From positions 15,136 to 79,135 of the forward strand of contig JANWXY010000057.1 of the NCBI GenBank assembly GCA_025057135.1: a DNA stretch of 64,000 nt. The letters are read 5' to 3'. Positions 28,386-53,993 of this stretch are shown piece by piece. Within the stretch, counting starts at the first letter, position 1; the number at the start of each line of letters is the position of its first letter. The translations under genes were made by a program, and so were the position numbers. The notes beneath the pieces were generated by a model. The model did no database searches. It was not told the origin of the DNA and saw nothing but the letters and a program-made list of their open reading frames with translations. This stretch comes from Bacteroidia bacterium. Its GTDB lineage: Bacteria > Bacteroidota > Bacteroidia > SpSt-205.

Positions 28386-28456
28386 GGCGACGTGGCCGAG
28401 CGGTTAGGCACGGGTCTGCAAAACCCTCTACGGGAGTTCGAATCTCCCCGTCGCCT
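28386..28456 (+). tRNA. tRNA-Cys (anticodon GCA)
   Basis: 7-bp acceptor stem ggcgacg/cgtcgcc. Anticodon loop 'cuGCAaa'. T-arm gggag-TTCGAAT-ctccc. CCA is not encoded. Confidence 0.8.
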
Positions 28457-29886: not shown

Positions 29887-29958
29887 GCCATCGTAGCTCA
29901 GTGGCAGAGCACTTCCTTGGTAAGGAAGAGGTCGCCGGTTCAATCCCGGCCGATGGCT
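29887..29958 (+). tRNA. tRNA-Thr (anticodon GGT)
   Basis: Acceptor gccatcg/cgatggc. D-arm 'agctcagtggcagagc'. Anticodon stem cttcc/ggaag with loop 'uuGGUaa'. T-arm 'ccggttcaatcccgg'. Confidence 0.88.
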
Positions 29959-31871: not shown

Positions 31872-31944
<73 letters not shown>

Positions 31945-46176: not shown

Positions 46177-46926
46177 ATGAAACAGCTATTTTTGCCAGGT
46201 ATGGACCGCAGGAGTTTTCTGATGACCTTTGCAGCTTTGGCTCTGGGTGGTGTTAGTTGGGCTCGTCGCCGCACTAAACCTTATGTATGGATGGAAGCTT
46301 CCCTGACAGGCAGCTACCCTTATACCCTTCCCGACCTACCCTACCCCTACGAAGCCATAGAGCCTGCCATAGATACTCAGACGATGAAGGTTCATCATCA
46401 AGGACACCATGCTACCTATGTGAATAACCTCAATAAAGCCCTCGAAGAGCTCCCCTCCTTTCAAACGCAACCCTTAGAAGACTTGCTCAGTAATTTAGAG
46501 AAGGTACCCATGCCACAGCGTACAGCTATCAGGAATAATGGGGGGGGACACTGGAATCATACATTCTGGTGGAAGCTCCTCGCTCCTAAACCACAAGAAC
46601 CCTCCGTAAGCTTACAGAAACGCATCGCCTTAGAATTTGAGAGCTGGACTTCATTTCGGGCACAGCTATTAGAAGCGGCGGTAAAACACTTCGGTTCTGG
46701 CTGGGCATGGGTCGTACTGACACCAGCAGGCAAACTCCGTATCGTTACCACGCCTAATCAAGACAATCCTCTCATGCCCTACTCAGACGTGCGTGGCAAA
46801 CCAATTTTAGGCATAGATGTCTGGGAGCATGCATACTATCTGAAGTACCAAAACCGCCGTTCAGAGTACCTCGCAAATCTCTGGCAAAGACTAAACTGGG
46901 AATATGTAGAGACGCTGCTGGGATAG
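46177..46926 (+). CDS. sod: Fe/Mn-superoxide dismutase with Tat signal peptide (predicted periplasmic)
   Basis: 249 aa. Tat motif 'MDRRSFLMTFAALALGG'. SOD motifs 'HHQGHHATYVNNLN' and 'DVWEHAYYLKYQNRR'. Confidence 0.85.
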   Translation: MKQLFLPGMDRRSFLMTFAALALGGVSWARRRTKPYVWMEASLTGSYPYTLPDLPYPYEAIEPAIDTQTMKVHHQGHHATYVNNLNKALEELPSFQTQPLEDLLSNLEKVPMPQRTAIRNNGGGHWNHTFWWKLLAPKPQEPSVSLQKRIALEFESWTSFRAQLLEAAVKHFGSGWAWVVLTPAGKLRIVTTPNQDNPLMPYSDVRGKPILGIDVWEHAYYLKYQNRRSEYLANLWQRLNWEYVETLLG

Positions 46927-50331: not shown

Positions 50332-51034
50332 AATCTTCCGGCGTGTCTATGCCTATCCCCCGATAGGATGTCTCTCCCAACCATACAGAATACCCATGAT
50401 ATAACCAGCGTAGCTGTTCTAACTGCTCGGCTTCCTCAGGTGGGGCGGTGGATAAACCGCAGATTTCCATTAGGACTGACCGGTAGTAGCCATACAGACC
50501 TATGTGGCGAAAATACCCATGACGAGCAAAGACTTCGGTACTTGTAAGCGGAAGGTCACGCGGATGAGGAATGAGCGAACGGGAAAAATATAAAGCCCTT
50601 CCATCCTTAGCAGTTACCACTTTGACAACCGAAGGGGATAAAAGCTCCTCTAACCGATGTATTCGTGTCATGAGGCTGACGAGATTATATTTCCGGAGAA
50701 GCTCCACAATCAGCCGAATTTGGTCGGGCTCTATGAAGGGTTCATCCGCCTGGATATTTACGTAGGCGTCATATATCAGCTTCTCCGCTACCTCACCGAT
50801 ACGCTCTGTACCTGATGTGTGTGTGGAACGTGTCATTATCGCTCTACCGCCGAAATCCTCGACGACTCGGACGACACGCATGTCATCGGTTGCTACAATA
50901 CATTCATCACCAAAGACTTGACGCGCTCGTTCATAGACATGCTGGATGATAGGTTTATGACGCAGAGGAAGGAGAACCTTCCCCGGCAATCTCTGAGAAT
51001 GATACCGCGCTGGAATGACAGCTAATATCCGCAT
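50294..51034 (-). CDS. kdsB: 3-deoxy-manno-octulosonate cytidylyltransferase (CMP-Kdo synthetase)
   Basis: 246 aa: 'MRILAVIPARYHSQRLPGKVL' and 'IVATDD...NIQADEP'. Confidence 0.85.
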   Translation of the reverse strand: MRILAVIPARYHSQRLPGKVLLPLRHKPIIQHVYERARQVFGDECIVATDDMRVVRVVEDFGGRAIMTRSTHTSGTERIGEVAEKLIYDAYVNIQADEPFIEPDQIRLIVELLRKYNLVSLMTRIHRLEELLSPSVVKVVTAKDGRALYFSRSLIPHPRDLPLTSTEVFARHGYFRHIGLYGYYRSVLMEICGLSTAPPEEAEQLEQLRWLYHGYSVWLGETSYRGIGIDTPEDYEAAEQLAQTLL

Positions 51035-51055
51035 ACTTCTGACCTTGCAAACCTA

Positions 51056-52396
51056 ATGCCGAAGCCTGATACTTTTGTAAGGATGCACTTGGTGTGGAGC
51101 GACGAGCGGGGAGTCATATACGACGCTCCGACTTGGCAGGCTGTCGGACGGAGCGGCTTTTGGAAGTATCCTTGGAGTTCCTACCCGTCATGGATACCCC
51201 TTCCCGAAGGAAGTACATTATTCCATCTCGTGGGAAGGCATCCCATAGGTATATCTCCCAAAGGTGAGCTTCGCGTATATGAAAAAGGTTGGGCAGTAGC
51301 GGCTTTCATCGCTCCAGCTCACACCCAGCTGGCATCAGCCGCCTATGAGAAAGTCAGTAATGCGCCTACTTTGCCTCTGTACGCTTACACCGCTGTGGGT
51401 TGGAAAAATGGACGCTTCTATGTACCAGCTGTGAGGATAGACCCCCAGCCCCGTCAGGACATAAGGCACTTTGACCCTCTGGCCATAAATAGGGGCGCTG
51501 AAAAGCTACGCAAGCGCTTCCCCAGTAATCGTCTCGTAGCCCACCTCTTGGATAACTGCGTAGAACGGTACTGCTGTCCCGCCGCCCGCAATCTTGCGCT
51601 TGGACGGTGGGAATGTCCCTTGCCAACTTCGCCCGCTTGCAATGCCGCCTGCATTGGGTGTATTTCTTTACAAGAGAAGCATGAATCCCCCATCCCCAGC
51701 TCACAAGAGCGGCTGTCATTCATTCCTACCCCCGAAGAAATCGCTGAACTCGCCGTTTATCACCTAAATCATGCACCAGCTCCCATCGTGAGCTTCGGGC
51801 AAGGCTGCGAAGGCGAACCTCTCCTCGTCTGGCGCACCATCGAAGAAGCGGTACGCCTCATCCGCCGTAAGACTCCTCGGGGTATCATCAATCTGAATAC
51901 AAACGGAGCATGGCCTGACATCATTGAGCGCCTCGCTCATGCCGGCATAGACAGCTTCCGAATCAGCATGAATAGTGCCCAGCCAGCGTGGTATGAGCGT
52001 TATTACCGCCCCCGAAACTATAGCTTCGCCATGGTCAAGGAATCTATAAGACGAGCCACCAGTATGGGAAAATGGGTCTCTATCAACTATTTCATCCTGC
52101 CTGGCTTCACAGACCAGCCTACAGAAGTCTCCGCTCTCTATCAACTTATCCAGGAGACAGGCTTGCATATGATTCAGTGGAGAAACTTCAACATAGACCC
52201 CGACTGGTACATAGAAAGAATGCAGCTTTGTATGGGGAACCTCCAGCCGCCTATCGGGATTTATGCGCTTATGCGCCAGCTAAAGCGAGATTTTCCCCGT
52301 TTGAAATTCGGCTACTTCAATCCGACAGAGAAGTTCATACGTCAGCATATTACCCCTCTGCCTGCCTCCCAAGGAAATACAAAATGCACTGTATGA
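51056..52396 (+). CDS. radical SAM domain protein with ~200-aa uncharacterised N-terminal domain
   Basis: 446 aa. CxxxCxxC cluster 'CNAACIGC' at about aa 205, a GGE-like SAM motif 'GQGCEGEPLL' about 50 aa downstream, and 'INLNTNGAW'. No SPASM/twitch Cys cluster is present. Confidence 0.6.
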   Translation: MPKPDTFVRMHLVWSDERGVIYDAPTWQAVGRSGFWKYPWSSYPSWIPLPEGSTLFHLVGRHPIGISPKGELRVYEKGWAVAAFIAPAHTQLASAAYEKVSNAPTLPLYAYTAVGWKNGRFYVPAVRIDPQPRQDIRHFDPLAINRGAEKLRKRFPSNRLVAHLLDNCVERYCCPAARNLALGRWECPLPTSPACNAACIGCISLQEKHESPIPSSQERLSFIPTPEEIAELAVYHLNHAPAPIVSFGQGCEGEPLLVWRTIEEAVRLIRRKTPRGIINLNTNGAWPDIIERLAHAGIDSFRISMNSAQPAWYERYYRPRNYSFAMVKESIRRATSMGKWVSINYFILPGFTDQPTEVSALYQLIQETGLHMIQWRNFNIDPDWYIERMQLCMGNLQPPIGIYALMRQLKRDFPRLKFGYFNPTEKFIRQHITPLPASQGNTKCTV

Positions 52397-52453: not shown

Positions 52454-53320
52454 ATGGGGGTTATGGCATTTTACCACCTTTGCCTTCATGCCTTGTTATT
52501 CGGGGTCGGAATCTTATCTGCTCAGCACCATACTGATACCTTCCCCTTAGCCGAACCTGTACTACTCTTTCGCACAGGGGTTAGAACCCTACCAAGCGGC
52601 ATAGAACGCCTGAGCAGTATAGAACGCGGCGATACACTTTTCGTTTGGACACGATTTTGGGAGGCTCCCCCCGAAGGTATCCAGTGGAAATGGGGAAGGG
52701 ACACTTTTCGAGGCATCATTCAAGTCCCCCCTCTACCCCCGGATAGTGTCATGCCTCTGGCTGACTTTTCTGTGCCTATCACGCCTTCTGAAAGTACAGG
52801 TGCGGAGGCGTTTCCACTGGGGCTTCTATGGCTTTTGTTGGGCGGAGGGCTGGTTATCCTCGGGGTGTATCCTCTTTTCAGACCCCATTTACTTCGGGGA
52901 GCTAAAAAGCTGTATTTGCATTTGCGCTGGCAAGTTTGGCTCTGGCGCTGGCGTCGCCCTATGCCTCAAAGGTTTCCAGATTTCATTACAGCCGTAAAGA
53001 CTCTCCTGACACCTTACACTGAAAGTAACCCAGGAAGTTGGACACTGGCCGAAGTACGCACCCTTACCCCTCACTCTCCGCTAAGTCAAGTACTACAGGC
53101 TCTGTGGGAAGCCGACTATCAAATGCATTTCATGAATAAGCCATTGAATGATGCAGAAAAAACCACTCTCTGGCGCTCTGCGTGGCAAGCACTTCGCCAG
53201 GTGGGCTCCGAAGCTAAGGTACTCTCTGTGAAACCTCTATTTCCAAGCCATCATATGCCAAGCGCACATGAGAGGGCAGTGTCTTCTCTACTTCCCGATG
53301 TAGGCCCATCAGATGACTAA
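52454..53320 (+). CDS. hypothetical membrane protein
   Basis: 288 aa. N-terminal signal-like segment, a central TM helix 'LGLLWLLLGGGLVILGVYPLF' and an Arg/Trp-rich juxtamembrane stretch. No recognised domain. The 3' end overlaps the convergent MBL gene by 107 nt. Confidence 0.35.
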   Translation: MGVMAFYHLCLHALLFGVGILSAQHHTDTFPLAEPVLLFRTGVRTLPSGIERLSSIERGDTLFVWTRFWEAPPEGIQWKWGRDTFRGIIQVPPLPPDSVMPLADFSVPITPSESTGAEAFPLGLLWLLLGGGLVILGVYPLFRPHLLRGAKKLYLHLRWQVWLWRWRRPMPQRFPDFITAVKTLLTPYTESNPGSWTLAEVRTLTPHSPLSQVLQALWEADYQMHFMNKPLNDAEKTTLWRSAWQALRQVGSEAKVLSVKPLFPSHHMPSAHERAVSSLLPDVGPSDD

Positions 53321-53993
53321 TATGAGTAAAATAGGCCCGCCTTGGACGAACTCTCTCTACGACAGCCAAGGCCGCCTCTAAATGAAAGTGTGAAATGTGA
53401 GGCTCCTTTCTCAGAGCATTCAGAATGAGCACTTCCACATCGTACAGATATTCCCAAGTCTCCTCGGGAATAAAACTGGCATCCGTAATATACACCAACC
53501 CCCCTATACGAAACGCCAATACGGGCAGCTTATAATGCAGAACGGGCAAGGGAAGCACCTCTATCCCATGCAAACTAAATGGAACAAGGGGTTCTATCTC
53601 CCAGGGAGTGAGCTGTGGCACGCCCGGATACGGCGGTCCATCAAATGCATAAGCAAACTCCATTTTGATCTGCTGGATGGTAGCTGCATCTCCATAAATG
53701 GGAATGCGTTTATTCTGGAGGTAGTTGAAAGGACGCACATCGTCAAGGCCCGCCGTATGATCTTTATGAGCATGTGTAAAAAGAACGGCATCCACGGTGG
53801 CCAGGCGCGCATTTAGAACTTGCTGGCGGAAATCCGGACCCGTATCTATGACCCACACCTTTTCTTGCAGGAGAATAGCAATAGAAGTCCTGAGGCGCTT
53901 ATCTCGTGGGTCAAGAGACCGACAAACCGTACAAGAGCACCCGAGAACAGGCACCCCTTGTGAAGTACCTGTTCCCAAAAATCGCACCTTCAA
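53214..53993 (-). CDS. MBL-fold metallo-hydrolase, PhnP-like
   Basis: 259 aa: 'MKVRFLGTGTSQGVPVLGCSCTVCRS' (PhnP-type Cys motif) and 'LFTHAHKDHTAGLDD' (HxHxDH). Confidence 0.75.
   Translation of the reverse strand: MKVRFLGTGTSQGVPVLGCSCTVCRSLDPRDKRLRTSIAILLQEKVWVIDTGPDFRQQVLNARLATVDAVLFTHAHKDHTAGLDDVRPFNYLQNKRIPIYGDAATIQQIKMEFAYAFDGPPYPGVPQLTPWEIEPLVPFSLHGIEVLPLPVLHYKLPVLAFRIGGLVYITDASFIPEETWEYLYDVEVLILNALRKEPHISHFHLEAALAVVERVRPRRAYFTHISHLMGLHREVEKTLPSHVRLAYDGLEIEVSQRVP

Follow-up and report, generated by a model that had tools for sequence, protein, structure and literature searches.

Gene Start and Divergent Spacer

The window analysed here, a 64,000-nt stretch of DNA from a Bacteroidia bacterium, contains an uninterrupted open reading frame at 51056..52396 on the plus strand, called at 446 amino acids. 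Sequence comparison places the true start at the second methionine of this frame, the ATG at 51083, because the database entry that is 100% identical to the window protein is 437 aa long, and because the nine-codon upstream extension (51056..51082, plus strand) is interrupted by a stop codon in one of the two closest relatives (locus L001) and lacks an in-frame ATG in the other (L002). The conserved coding sequence then runs from 51083 to 52396 on the plus strand, with 437 codons followed by a TGA stop. In these relatives, 51056..51082 is conserved at the level of the DNA but not of the reading frame, and the extension is probably untranslated, since it holds a promoter element. The gene is intact and belongs to a large, uncharacterised radical SAM family. 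Residue numbers below refer to the 437-aa protein unless otherwise stated.

The neighbouring kdsB gene is divergently transcribed from a start codon at 51034..51032 on the minus strand. The original prediction gave a distance of 21 nt between the two starts; this figure derived from the wrong start codon, and the spacer measured from the ATG at 51083 is 48 nt. The element TACTTTTG (51070..51077, plus strand) matches the Bacteroidetes -7 promoter consensus TAnnTTTG and is located 5 nt 5' of the ATG; L001 (TATCTTTG) and L002 (TATTTTTG) each have a box equally far from the ATG. A second TAnnTTTG box, TAGGTTTG (51048..51055, minus strand), faces kdsB, 13 nt upstream of its ATG. The motif is enriched in the window, with 47 matches compared to 30.4 ± 5.9 expected, a count reached in none of 100 shuffles. 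From established knowledge of Bacteroidetes promoters, we take both boxes to be promoters; they would constitute a putative back-to-back divergent pair, a compact arrangement with kdsB that appears particular to the lineage of the window. Scans for sigma-70-type promoters and terminators around the gene yielded matches at chance level only.

Domain Architecture

The AlphaFold model of the full-length protein (pLDDT 89.3, pTM 0.89) consists of an all-β domain, three helices and a barrel, the last having the (β/α)6 partial TIM-barrel fold of the radical SAM superfamily. The radical SAM core comprises residues 177–372 (51611..52198, plus strand) and opens with an invariant glutamate, E177. Residues 190–356 in the 446-aa numbering match PF04055 with an E-value of 2e-19 (70.7 bits, cutoff 29.5), which places the radical SAM identity far beyond chance. 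The SAM-binding [4Fe-4S] cluster motif CxxxCxxC is present as CNAACIGC (C186, C190 and C193; 51638..51661, plus strand) and is conserved in 313–318 of 319 family members. The motif itself was thus correctly recognised in the original prediction, although its position was not: it starts at residue 195 in the 446-aa numbering rather than at about 205. The GGE-like motif that had been noted as GCEGEPLL is indeed found, at residue 250 in that numbering; it forms part of GQGCEGEPLL (51797..51826, plus strand), a GGE-type SAM-binding motif that includes the invariant C242 (51806-51808) and aligns to GPGEPL in NifB. At the end of the barrel, the family-signature motif QWRNFNIDPDWY (52175..52210, plus strand) is invariant in 46 Bacteroidota-type members, and its residues Q365, R367, N368 and D372 are at least 90% conserved among 47 divergent representatives. 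A further motif, GYFNP, is located near the C-terminus (52310..52324, plus strand) and is conserved in the family alignment. The window protein carries the full family signature: C159, C165, E177, C242, QWRNxNIDP and GYFNP.

The N-terminal region had been described as an uncharacterised domain of about 200 aa, rich in W, Y and P, with no Rossmann or flavodoxin character. All of these points are borne out. The first 190 residues contain 4.2% W, 4.7% Y and 10.5% P, and the predicted fold is all-β followed by three helices. Residues 1–125 (51083..51457, plus strand) form the family-specific β domain, modelled as 12 strands with pLDDT mostly >93, and residues 126–176 (51458..51610, plus strand) form a linker with helices at 132–145, 150–162 and 166–172. 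These first ~176 residues had no match in Pfam, NCBIfam or the PDB sequences; for the N-domain this includes Pfam searches with 20 members at E-values up to 10 and a profile search of the PDB sequences. When residues 1–176 alone were searched against 1.84 billion representatives, 374 matches (representative clusters) were obtained. The full-length matches were nearly all 404–453 aa long, with the matching region at the N-terminus, and among the matches found, the N-domain occurs solely fused to this radical SAM core. Modelled in isolation, the domain is poor (pLDDT 62), whereas it exceeds 93 in the full-length context, as expected of a domain that packs on the barrel. It has few invariant positions.

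An Invariant Cysteine Set Outside the Catalytic Cluster

The helical linker contains a Cx5C motif, formed by C159 (51557-51559) and C165 (51575-51577), 21 residues ahead of the radical SAM motif. These two cysteines, together with C242 and E177, are invariant in all 319 members of the family alignment and are better conserved than the CxxxCxxC cysteines themselves (counted in the 446-aa frame, C159, C165 and C242 are residues 168, 174 and 251). No further cysteine column is conserved in these 319 sequences. The lack of any such column after C242 agrees with the earlier observation that no SPASM or twitch cluster is present at the C-terminus. From that observation the protein had been treated as a single-cluster enzyme, which overlooked the invariant Cx5C pair and the cysteine triad to which it belongs.

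Four representatives are apparent pseudo-enzymes that have lost the CxxxCxxC motif and the acidic residues of the GGE motif, but retain all three extra cysteines. This retention points to a role that does not depend on SAM cleavage, for instance the binding of a cluster. By analogy with known auxiliary clusters, C159, C165 and C242 are likely to ligate a second Fe-S cluster.

The layout parallels that of LipA. In the lipoyl synthase LIAS, C111-x5-C117 is followed 20 residues on by C137 (PMC12246082). Both LipA/LIAS and the present family have a three-helix module before the barrel, with a Cys-x5-Cys pair 20–21 residues upstream of CxxxCxxC. The family differs in having [H/Q]-x4-C-x5-C in place of Cx4Cx5C, with His in 178 and Gln in 140 of the 319 members at the position of the first LipA cysteine, in having its third invariant cysteine in the GGE loop, and in carrying the additional 125-aa β domain. 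The RSSY motif is absent from the family alignment, the LipA model was not among the NCBIfam matches, and no lipoyl-protein context was seen. The alternative lipoyl synthases LipS1 and LipS2 were also considered and rejected, since they are BioB-like, whereas the family gives no BioB signal. An hhalign comparison of the family profile with LIAS gave a probability of 0.28% and covered only the barrel, leaving the helical module unaligned.

In NifB, a cysteine N-terminal to the radical SAM motif serves as a ligand for auxiliary K clusters (PMC10701300), and the present family likewise has cysteines upstream of this motif. However, the profile alignment with NifB begins at the cluster loop and does not reach them. 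Because the family profile aligns neither with the LipA helical module nor with the upstream segment of NifB, the analogy to these auxiliary clusters would be one of spacing and layout only.

The same lack of sequence homology to known auxiliary-cluster modules, in the NifB and LIAS comparisons, raises the possibility that the protein has a single cluster and that the extra cysteines are catalytic or redox-active, with C242 acting as a hydrogen-atom donor near SAM and C159/C165 as a resolving pair. C242 is well placed for this, three residues ahead of the SAM-contacting glutamate of the GGE motif. Cysteines that donate hydrogen atoms or carry methyl groups are known from RlmN/Cfr, spore photoproduct lyase and peptide epimerases, which thus provide precedents. 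Such a role would make it hard to explain why pseudo-enzymes without the CxxxCxxC motif and the GGE acids should retain all three cysteines. Moreover, both the spacing within the Cx5C pair and the interval between this pair and the radical SAM motif agree with those of the auxiliary module in LipA, and the invariant E177 could serve as a fourth ligand. On balance, we consider a catalytic role possible but rather doubtful, and favour a second cluster.

Family Distribution and Relationship to Characterised Enzymes

More than 8000 homologues were found, all under generic names; the full-length ones are 53–100% identical to the window protein. The family occurs in at least 598 species genomes, mostly Chitinophagales and Saprospiraceae, but also in Kryptonia, Syntrophomonadaceae, Alicyclobacillus, Deferribacter and the amoeba Balamuthia. 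Its hosts include both aerobes and strict anaerobes. No paper describing the family was found in a literature search.

The protein had been proposed to be a radical SAM enzyme of unclear class, and searches of Pfam and NCBIfam gave no confident match to a characterised family that would alter this. No curated NCBIfam subfamily model reached its cutoff: the best scores were 31.5 bits for MoaA (cutoff 284.05) and 31 for TatD-linked rSAM (cutoff 130), followed by 22.6 for NifB (TIGR01290; cutoff 343.65) and 19 for PFL-AE (cutoff 231.75). Structurally, the barrel of the model is closest to NifB, BlsE, PFL-AE and LipA, in alignments that cover at most 207–263 positions and leave the first ~176 residues unmatched.

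By sequence, the closest solved relative is NifB (PDB 6Y1X, 7JMB, 7BI7; E = 2e-6). The two share the cluster loop GR[MW]..P..[AS]P.CN..C..C and PG.[NT]D motifs, and GPGEPL in NifB corresponds to CEGEPL in the family. The family differs from NifB in its sub-cutoff score and in the absence of conserved C-terminal Cys/His ligands, which in NifB serve the K1/K2 clusters together with N-terminal ones; the annotated neighbourhoods examined showed no nif genes.

MoaA (GTP 3',8-cyclase), the best-scoring curated model, has the same short-barrel type, an NTNG motif and a similar second-cluster logic. The auxiliary cluster of MoaA has three C-terminal cysteines as ligands, whereas the family has no conserved C-terminal cysteine and falls far below the MoaA cutoff. 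SPASM/twitch and B12-dependent enzymes resemble the family as multi-domain radical SAM proteins with accessory modules. The family, however, lacks a C-terminal Cys-rich domain and has no Pfam match to SPASM or Fer4_12; nor is there a match to a B12-binding Pfam model, and the N-domain is all-β in the model rather than Rossmann.

Some sources (JGI automatic annotation) name homologues "pyruvate-formate lyase-activating enzyme" or "wyosine synthetase", and these names are the evidence in favour of a glycyl-radical-enzyme activase or a TYW1-type wyosine synthase. PFL-AE, however, has neither an N-terminal domain nor the extra conserved cysteines, and none of the annotated neighbourhoods contains a glycyl radical enzyme. 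The TYW1 model gave no match at all, and wyosine is an archaeal and eukaryotic modification. With the curated scores so far below threshold, both identities are effectively refuted, and we give them next to no chance.

The kinship with NifB, MoaA, BlsE and HydE, the closest relatives in sequence and structure, has a further implication, as these enzymes act on small molecules or clusters. The protein could similarly belong to the biosynthesis of a small molecule or cofactor, with the second cluster anchoring a small substrate over which the β domain closes the barrel. The barrel is rich in invariant polar residues (R210, H227, R261, N272, N274, R293, S298, Y304, Y307, N335, D344, E348, Q365, R367, N368 and D372), in keeping with such a reading, and the β domain, with its few invariant positions, is confidently modelled only when packed on the core. 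In one genome, the gene directly follows arsenosugar-type transferases (TIGR04282/TIGR04283). This adjacency is a single instance, however, and an arsenosugar link was rejected, since such transferases were seen neither in the window nor in 170 other loci. The gene has no recurring pathway genes at its side, and the search for riboswitches found none. A small-molecule substrate is a possibility that we put forward only tentatively.

Genomic Context

The original prediction placed the gene next to LPS core biosynthesis and proposed that conserved neighbours be sought, including the 288-aa membrane protein encoded downstream. Neither association extends beyond the closest relatives. Among 80 genome loci, kdsB is adjacent only in L001 and L002 and is absent from the other 78, while the gene for the 288-aa protein is kept only in L001, or at most in L001 and L002. 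In 87 further, diverse loci, no neighbour was common to more than 15. The partners seen in Chitinophagaceae, an agmatinase-like protein and a 187-aa membrane protein, are missing from the window and are unrelated to the 288-aa protein.

An enzyme modifying Kdo, lipid A or a core sugar, with its regulation tied to that of kdsB by the shared divergent promoter region, would fit the 48-nt spacer with its two back-to-back promoter-like boxes, an arrangement retained in L001 and L002, and in L087 a degenerate paralogue has LpxK at a distance of ~3.5 kb. But kdsB is not a recurrent neighbour in the 87 diverse loci either, and the family is found in an amoeba and in the Gram-positive groups Alicyclobacillus and Syntrophomonadaceae, organisms that do not make LPS. 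The LPS link is unsupported, such an enzyme is highly improbable, and the adjacency of kdsB looks like a local coincidence.

Elsewhere, the context is scattered and housekeeping-like, and hints weakly at the translation apparatus. The gene lies within a rho-rpmE-prfA-prmC-sua5 cluster in two distant lineages of Firmicutes. A YhaM-like 3'-5' exoribonuclease is encoded downstream in Syntrophomonadaceae, a PHP phosphoesterase resembling RNase RNM upstream in another clade, and Dus downstream in L172-174; a SpoU methylase and EndoV are found near the gene in Kryptonium, and an MnmC-type methyltransferase and S21 in Deferribacter. These neighbours would be consistent with a tRNA- or rRNA-modifying enzyme that uses the β domain as an RNA-binding module, as would the basic character of the window protein (pI 9.3). 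However, none of the RNA-related neighbours is common to different lineages, and basic charge was rejected as a sign of nucleic-acid binding, since it is not conserved across the family (median pI 8.2, with 40% of members <7). Furthermore, the invariant polar residues lie mostly inside the barrel, not on the β domain, and no TRAM, PUA, THUMP or other known RNA-binding domain was detected with Pfam. An RNA substrate is doubtful on these grounds.

In the P0234-like clade, a 34-aa ORF for a conserved polybasic microprotein, MKRRKKTNRLKAALKRKNVKHSLRKSKGERKYPT, is located immediately upstream of the gene and co-directional with it in 17 loci, and occurs in 7 further places. The pair survives changes in the downstream genes and the insertion of two genes between its members; in L175, the stop codon of the peptide abuts the start of the enzyme. 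The ORF evolves as a coding sequence, with 13, 14 and 30 variable sites at the three codon positions and 953 synonymous versus 473 non-synonymous differences. The enzyme might accordingly be a maturase acting post-translationally on a small basic product of the ribosome, either a polybasic microprotein or a small ribosomal protein, whose gene would be adjacent in some clades and elsewhere in the genome in others, including this organism. The position of the Firmicutes gene beside or near rpmE (L31) would agree with this. The peptide was found in one clade only, however, and neither in the window, where no small ORF adjoining the gene was detected, nor in any of the other loci. The enzyme also lacks the RRE and SPASM domains typical of peptide-modifying radical SAM enzymes, and several loci have terminator-like hairpins downstream of the peptide gene, suggesting that the two genes are perhaps separate transcription units. 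We consider such a maturase unlikely.

A search for riboswitches and other RNA elements near family genes in 17 loci and in the window found only three tRNAs, all distant from the gene. PADLOC returned no matches, and a role in a defence system was rejected. The second radical SAM gene beside the degenerate member in L090 encodes an unrelated SPASM-type enzyme.

Proposed Mechanism and Significance

We favour, at a probability of roughly 60%, an uncharacterised four-part family with a two-cluster radical mechanism and a lid role for the β domain, encoded by a gene outside the Kdo/LPS pathway. The four parts, in a fixed arrangement, are the private all-β N-domain of ~125 aa, the Cx5C three-helix linker, a NifB/MoaA/PFL-AE/LipA-type barrel that contains CxxxCxxC and a GGE motif with an invariant cysteine ahead of it, and a conserved C-terminal cap. 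The CxxxCxxC cluster would bind SAM and cleave it reductively to a 5'-deoxyadenosyl radical, which would abstract hydrogen from a substrate positioned between two clusters, the second of them an Fe-S centre with C159, C165, C242 and possibly E177 as ligands. The β domain would pack on the open side of the partial barrel, serving as a lid and in substrate recognition. Membership of the family, its architecture, the conservation of its motifs and the lack of a consistent LPS neighbourhood are direct results, whereas the second centre and the lid role are inferred. In its context, the gene behaves like a scattered housekeeping gene and not like a component of the Kdo/LPS pathway.

A bolder form of this proposal, to which we assign little chance, is that the family is an unrecognised two-cluster class with a housekeeping role in modifying the translation apparatus, a role that would be conserved across Chitinophagales, Firmicutes and an amoeba. 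Its target would be a ribosomal-protein-like polybasic microprotein, whose gene adjoins that of the enzyme in one clade, or the ribosomal binding site of this microprotein, recognised by the β domain, which would have a novel fold.

Most radical SAM subfamilies are without known function, and the reactions of the superfamily are chemically difficult. The present family is of interest for its size, for an N-domain that falls outside the domain libraries, and for a Cys/Glu set that outconserves the catalytic cluster, as well as for its pseudo-enzyme paralogues, its presence in a eukaryote and its microprotein partner in one clade. In the window, the gene should not be assigned to LPS core biosynthesis. 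Proof of the second cluster and identification of the substrate would give the superfamily a new reaction or a new mode of recognition, and thousands of generic or wrong annotations, such as "PFL activase" and "wyosine synthetase", would be corrected.

Gene Boundaries and Putative Promoter Region

The radical SAM gene beside kdsB occupies an uninterrupted 446-aa ORF at 51056..52396 on the forward strand of the window, as originally predicted. The identical protein in the database is 437 aa long. The nine additional codons are broken by a stop in L001 and lack an in-frame ATG in L002 (the loci of the two closest relatives), while the same stretch is conserved as DNA in all three genomes despite the broken frame. 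Within it lies a match to TAnnTTTG, the Bacteroidetes −7 promoter consensus (TACTTTTG, 51070-51077, + strand), which ends 5 nt before the ATG and is found at an equal distance from the enzyme start in the window, L001 and L002. The motif is over-represented window-wide (47 matches vs. 30.4 ± 5.9 expected, a count reached by 0 of 100 shuffles). Because of the identical database entry, the disrupted extension and the promoter-like box inside it, we place the CDS at 51083..52396. The divergent arrangement with kdsB (NF003952, 274 bits) stands, but with this start the spacer is 48 nt rather than 21 nt, and it holds two back-to-back promoter-like boxes, the second of which (51048-51055, − strand) faces kdsB. 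Since the putative −7 box ends so close to the ATG, the enzyme leader is suggested to be very short or absent.

Class Assignment and Distribution

The radical SAM assignment holds up, at a level far exceeding chance. The cluster motif CNAACIGC is present, although it starts at residue 195 of the 446-aa frame rather than about 205 as first described; GCEGEPLL follows at residue 250, and the first 190 residues are rich in W, Y and P as noted (4.2%, 4.7% and 10.5%). The sole Pfam match was the generic Radical_SAM model (residues 190-356 of the 446-aa frame, E = 2e-19). None of the NCBIfam subfamily models came near its cutoff: the top scores were MoaA (31.5 vs. 284), TatD-linked rSAM (31 vs. 130), NifB (22.6 vs. 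344) and PFL-AE (19 vs. 232). The profile searches thus bear out the unclear class, with no confident match to a characterized family.

A word-indexed search returned at least 8000 homologues, all scored candidates having E-values of 0.001 or better. The best 120 of these were full-length throughout (~430 aa) with 53-100% identity, and carried either the name “radical SAM protein” or automatic names (such as “PFL activase” and “wyosine synthetase”). With one genome scanned per species, the family was found in at least 598 species; the best 80 were nearly all Chitinophagales/Saprospiraceae. The family also occurs in Kryptonium, Syntrophomonadaceae, Alicyclobacillus, Deferribacter and the amoeba Balamuthia mandrillaris, whose copy (P0137, KAL6054992.1, 577 aa) was probably acquired by horizontal transfer from a bacterium. 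Its ~120-aa Arg-rich N-terminal extension looks like an organellar targeting sequence. P0137 was found on several Balamuthia contigs, along with a shorter “variant 2”.

The N-Terminal Domain and Predicted Fold

When residues 1-176 alone (437-aa frame, used from here on) were searched against 1.84 billion representatives, 374 matches were found, 202 of them at E ≤ 1e-10. Nearly all full-length matches were 404-453 aa with the domain N-terminal, and the two exceptions, the Balamuthia extension and one frameshift fusion, were only apparent. By this survey, the domain appears to be private to the family architecture.

An AlphaFold model built with a 46-sequence alignment (pLDDT 89.3, pTM 0.89) predicts an all-β domain (residues 1-120, about 12 strands) followed by three linker helices (132-145, 150-162 and 166-172) and a barrel of alternating strands and helices (177 to about 370), with helices at the C-terminus. 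The N-domain was confidently modelled only within the full-length protein, consistent with its packing against the barrel. A Foldseek search of all PDB chains found no match to the full architecture; the best query-normalized TM-scores were 0.42 for LipA/LIAS and 0.39 for NifB.

Invariant Cysteines and a Putative Second Fe-S Site

Exactly six Cys columns are conserved among 319 full-length members: the three radical SAM cysteines (313-318 members) and C159, C165 and C242 (319 each). E177 is invariant as well, whereas C178, which looks conserved in Bacteroidota, is Ala or Gly in other members. C159 and C165 form a Cx5C motif on linker helices two and three, 21 residues before C186. In four divergent representatives, P0160 (L090 6001-7254), P0188, P0241 (L087 6001-7362) and P0250, CxxxCxxC and the GGE acidic residues are gone but C159, C165 and C242 remain; these proteins are likely to be pseudo-enzymes or cluster-binding paralogues.

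NifB is the closest solved relative by sequence (E = 8e-8, or 2e-6 with a profile), the alignment beginning at the cluster loop and ending at the PG.[NT]D strand. In NifB, a Cys N-terminal to the radical SAM motif serves the K clusters (PMC10701300), but the family profile does not align with that upstream segment. In human LIAS, a three-helix N-terminal domain with C106-x4-C111-x5-C117, preceding C137 by 20 residues, ligates an auxiliary [4Fe-4S] cluster (PMC12246082). The family differs from LipA in several respects: its profile does not align with the helical module (hhalign 0.28%), His or Gln stands where LipA has its first Cys, and the RSSY motif is absent. From the conserved Cys set, the LIAS-like layout of Cx5C and the upstream Cys of NifB, we infer that C159, C165 and C242, perhaps joined by E177, make up a second Fe-S site beside the active site.

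Genomic Context

Among the best 80 loci, the divergent pairing with kdsB is confined to the window, L001 and L002. The next gene downstream in the window, a 288-aa ORF with two hydrophobic segments (52454-53320, + strand), had no match in family searches and is conserved only in L001 (48% identity). Its end overlaps the 3′ end of a convergent MBL-fold hydrolase gene (53214-53993, − strand) by about 107 nt. In Chitinophagaceae (L005-L080), the enzyme gene is preceded by a co-directional gene for an agmatinase-like protein (57 of 80 loci) and by one for a 187-aa membrane protein (63 of 80). Most Chitinophagaceae have this conserved co-directional trio, with examples at L042 28-1074 and L077 5409-5972, the ureohydrolase scoring just under the TIGR01230 cutoff. 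The trio was not found in Saprospiraceae or in the window's lineage, and the window contains neither partner.

In Alicyclobacillus and Syntrophomonadaceae (L081, L084, L089), the enzyme gene sits between rho and rpmE (L31), in the rho-rpmE-prfA-prmC-sua5 cluster; Syntrophomonadaceae also have a LysM-M23 peptidase and a YhaM-like OB+HD exoribonuclease as flanking genes, the latter directly 3′. The recurring translation-apparatus genes are a weak pointer to function. RNA is a rather unlikely substrate, and the family-wide pI, which is not basic (median 8.2), tells against it. Other neighbors include DUF4921 and EndoV (Kryptonium), enolase and DUF6588 (Deferribacter) and an S49 peptidase (Haliscomenobacter), and any one neighbor was common to at most 15 of 87 further diverse loci. 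Riboswitch scans around family genes in 17 loci and in the window were negative, as was a defence-system scan (PADLOC). This is the pattern of a scattered housekeeping gene. The implied link to LPS core biosynthesis is unsupported, since the neighbors are not conserved and the family is present in organisms without LPS; LPS is a very improbable substrate.

At L171 8001-10699, on a frameshift-prone long-read contig, the enzyme gene is directly preceded, in the same orientation, by a TIGR04282 and TIGR04283 “arsenosugar biosynthesis glycosyltransferase” pair, and so takes the slot usually held by ArsS. This single instance did not recur in 170 other loci. Elsewhere in the window, 46177-46926 (+ strand) encodes, by eye from its translation, a putative Fe/Mn superoxide dismutase; its twin-arginine-like start (MDRRSFLMTFAALALGG) suggests that it may be exported. 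An Rfam scan located three tRNA genes on the + strand within 3.6 kb (28386-28456, 29887-29958 and 31872-31944), unrelated to the radical SAM gene.

A Clade-Specific Microprotein

One clade, whose members share about 42% identity with the window protein, has a conserved 34-aa polybasic ORF (MKRRKKTNRLKAALKRKNVKHSLRKSKGERKYPT) just upstream of and co-directional with the enzyme gene, the gene order always being PHP phosphoesterase, EamA-like, peptide, enzyme. It was found in 17 metagenomic loci and in 7/7 further places retrieved via the peptide. Examples are L092 (5364-5468), L094 (2393-2497), L112 (1092-1196), L172 (4816-4920) and L175 (5001-5120), with at least 12 other loci. The pair persists where the downstream genes have changed or two genes are inserted between, and in L175 the peptide stop abuts the enzyme start. 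The ORF evolves as coding sequence: 13, 14 and 30 of 34 sites vary at the three codon positions, and synonymous codon differences outnumber non-synonymous ones (953 vs. 473). Pfam and NCBIfam gave no match, and the peptide family comprises only 33 clusters, each labelled hypothetical. Neither the window nor the other family clades yielded the peptide, which may act as a substrate or a subunit, or its gene may simply be linked. A small basic protein as the substrate of the enzymes is unlikely.

Proposed Mechanism

The best-supported reading is a two-center radical SAM enzyme. SAM would be cleaved at the CxxxCxxC cluster, with the substrate positioned between this cluster and the putative second Fe-S site, built of the linker Cx5C and the GGE-loop Cys, while the β domain would close or extend the partial barrel at its open side. 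The closest relatives and the many invariant polar residues in the barrel point tentatively to a small molecule or cofactor as substrate, a possible but doubtful assignment.

The superfamily and its general logic are already known, and uncharacterized radical SAM subfamilies are common. Pfam, NCBIfam and the searchable literature yielded no description of the N-domain or the invariant C/C/E/C set, nor of the pseudo-enzyme paralogues, the copy in the amoeba or the microprotein partner. The value of the family lies less in surprise than in the well-defined target it offers biochemistry.
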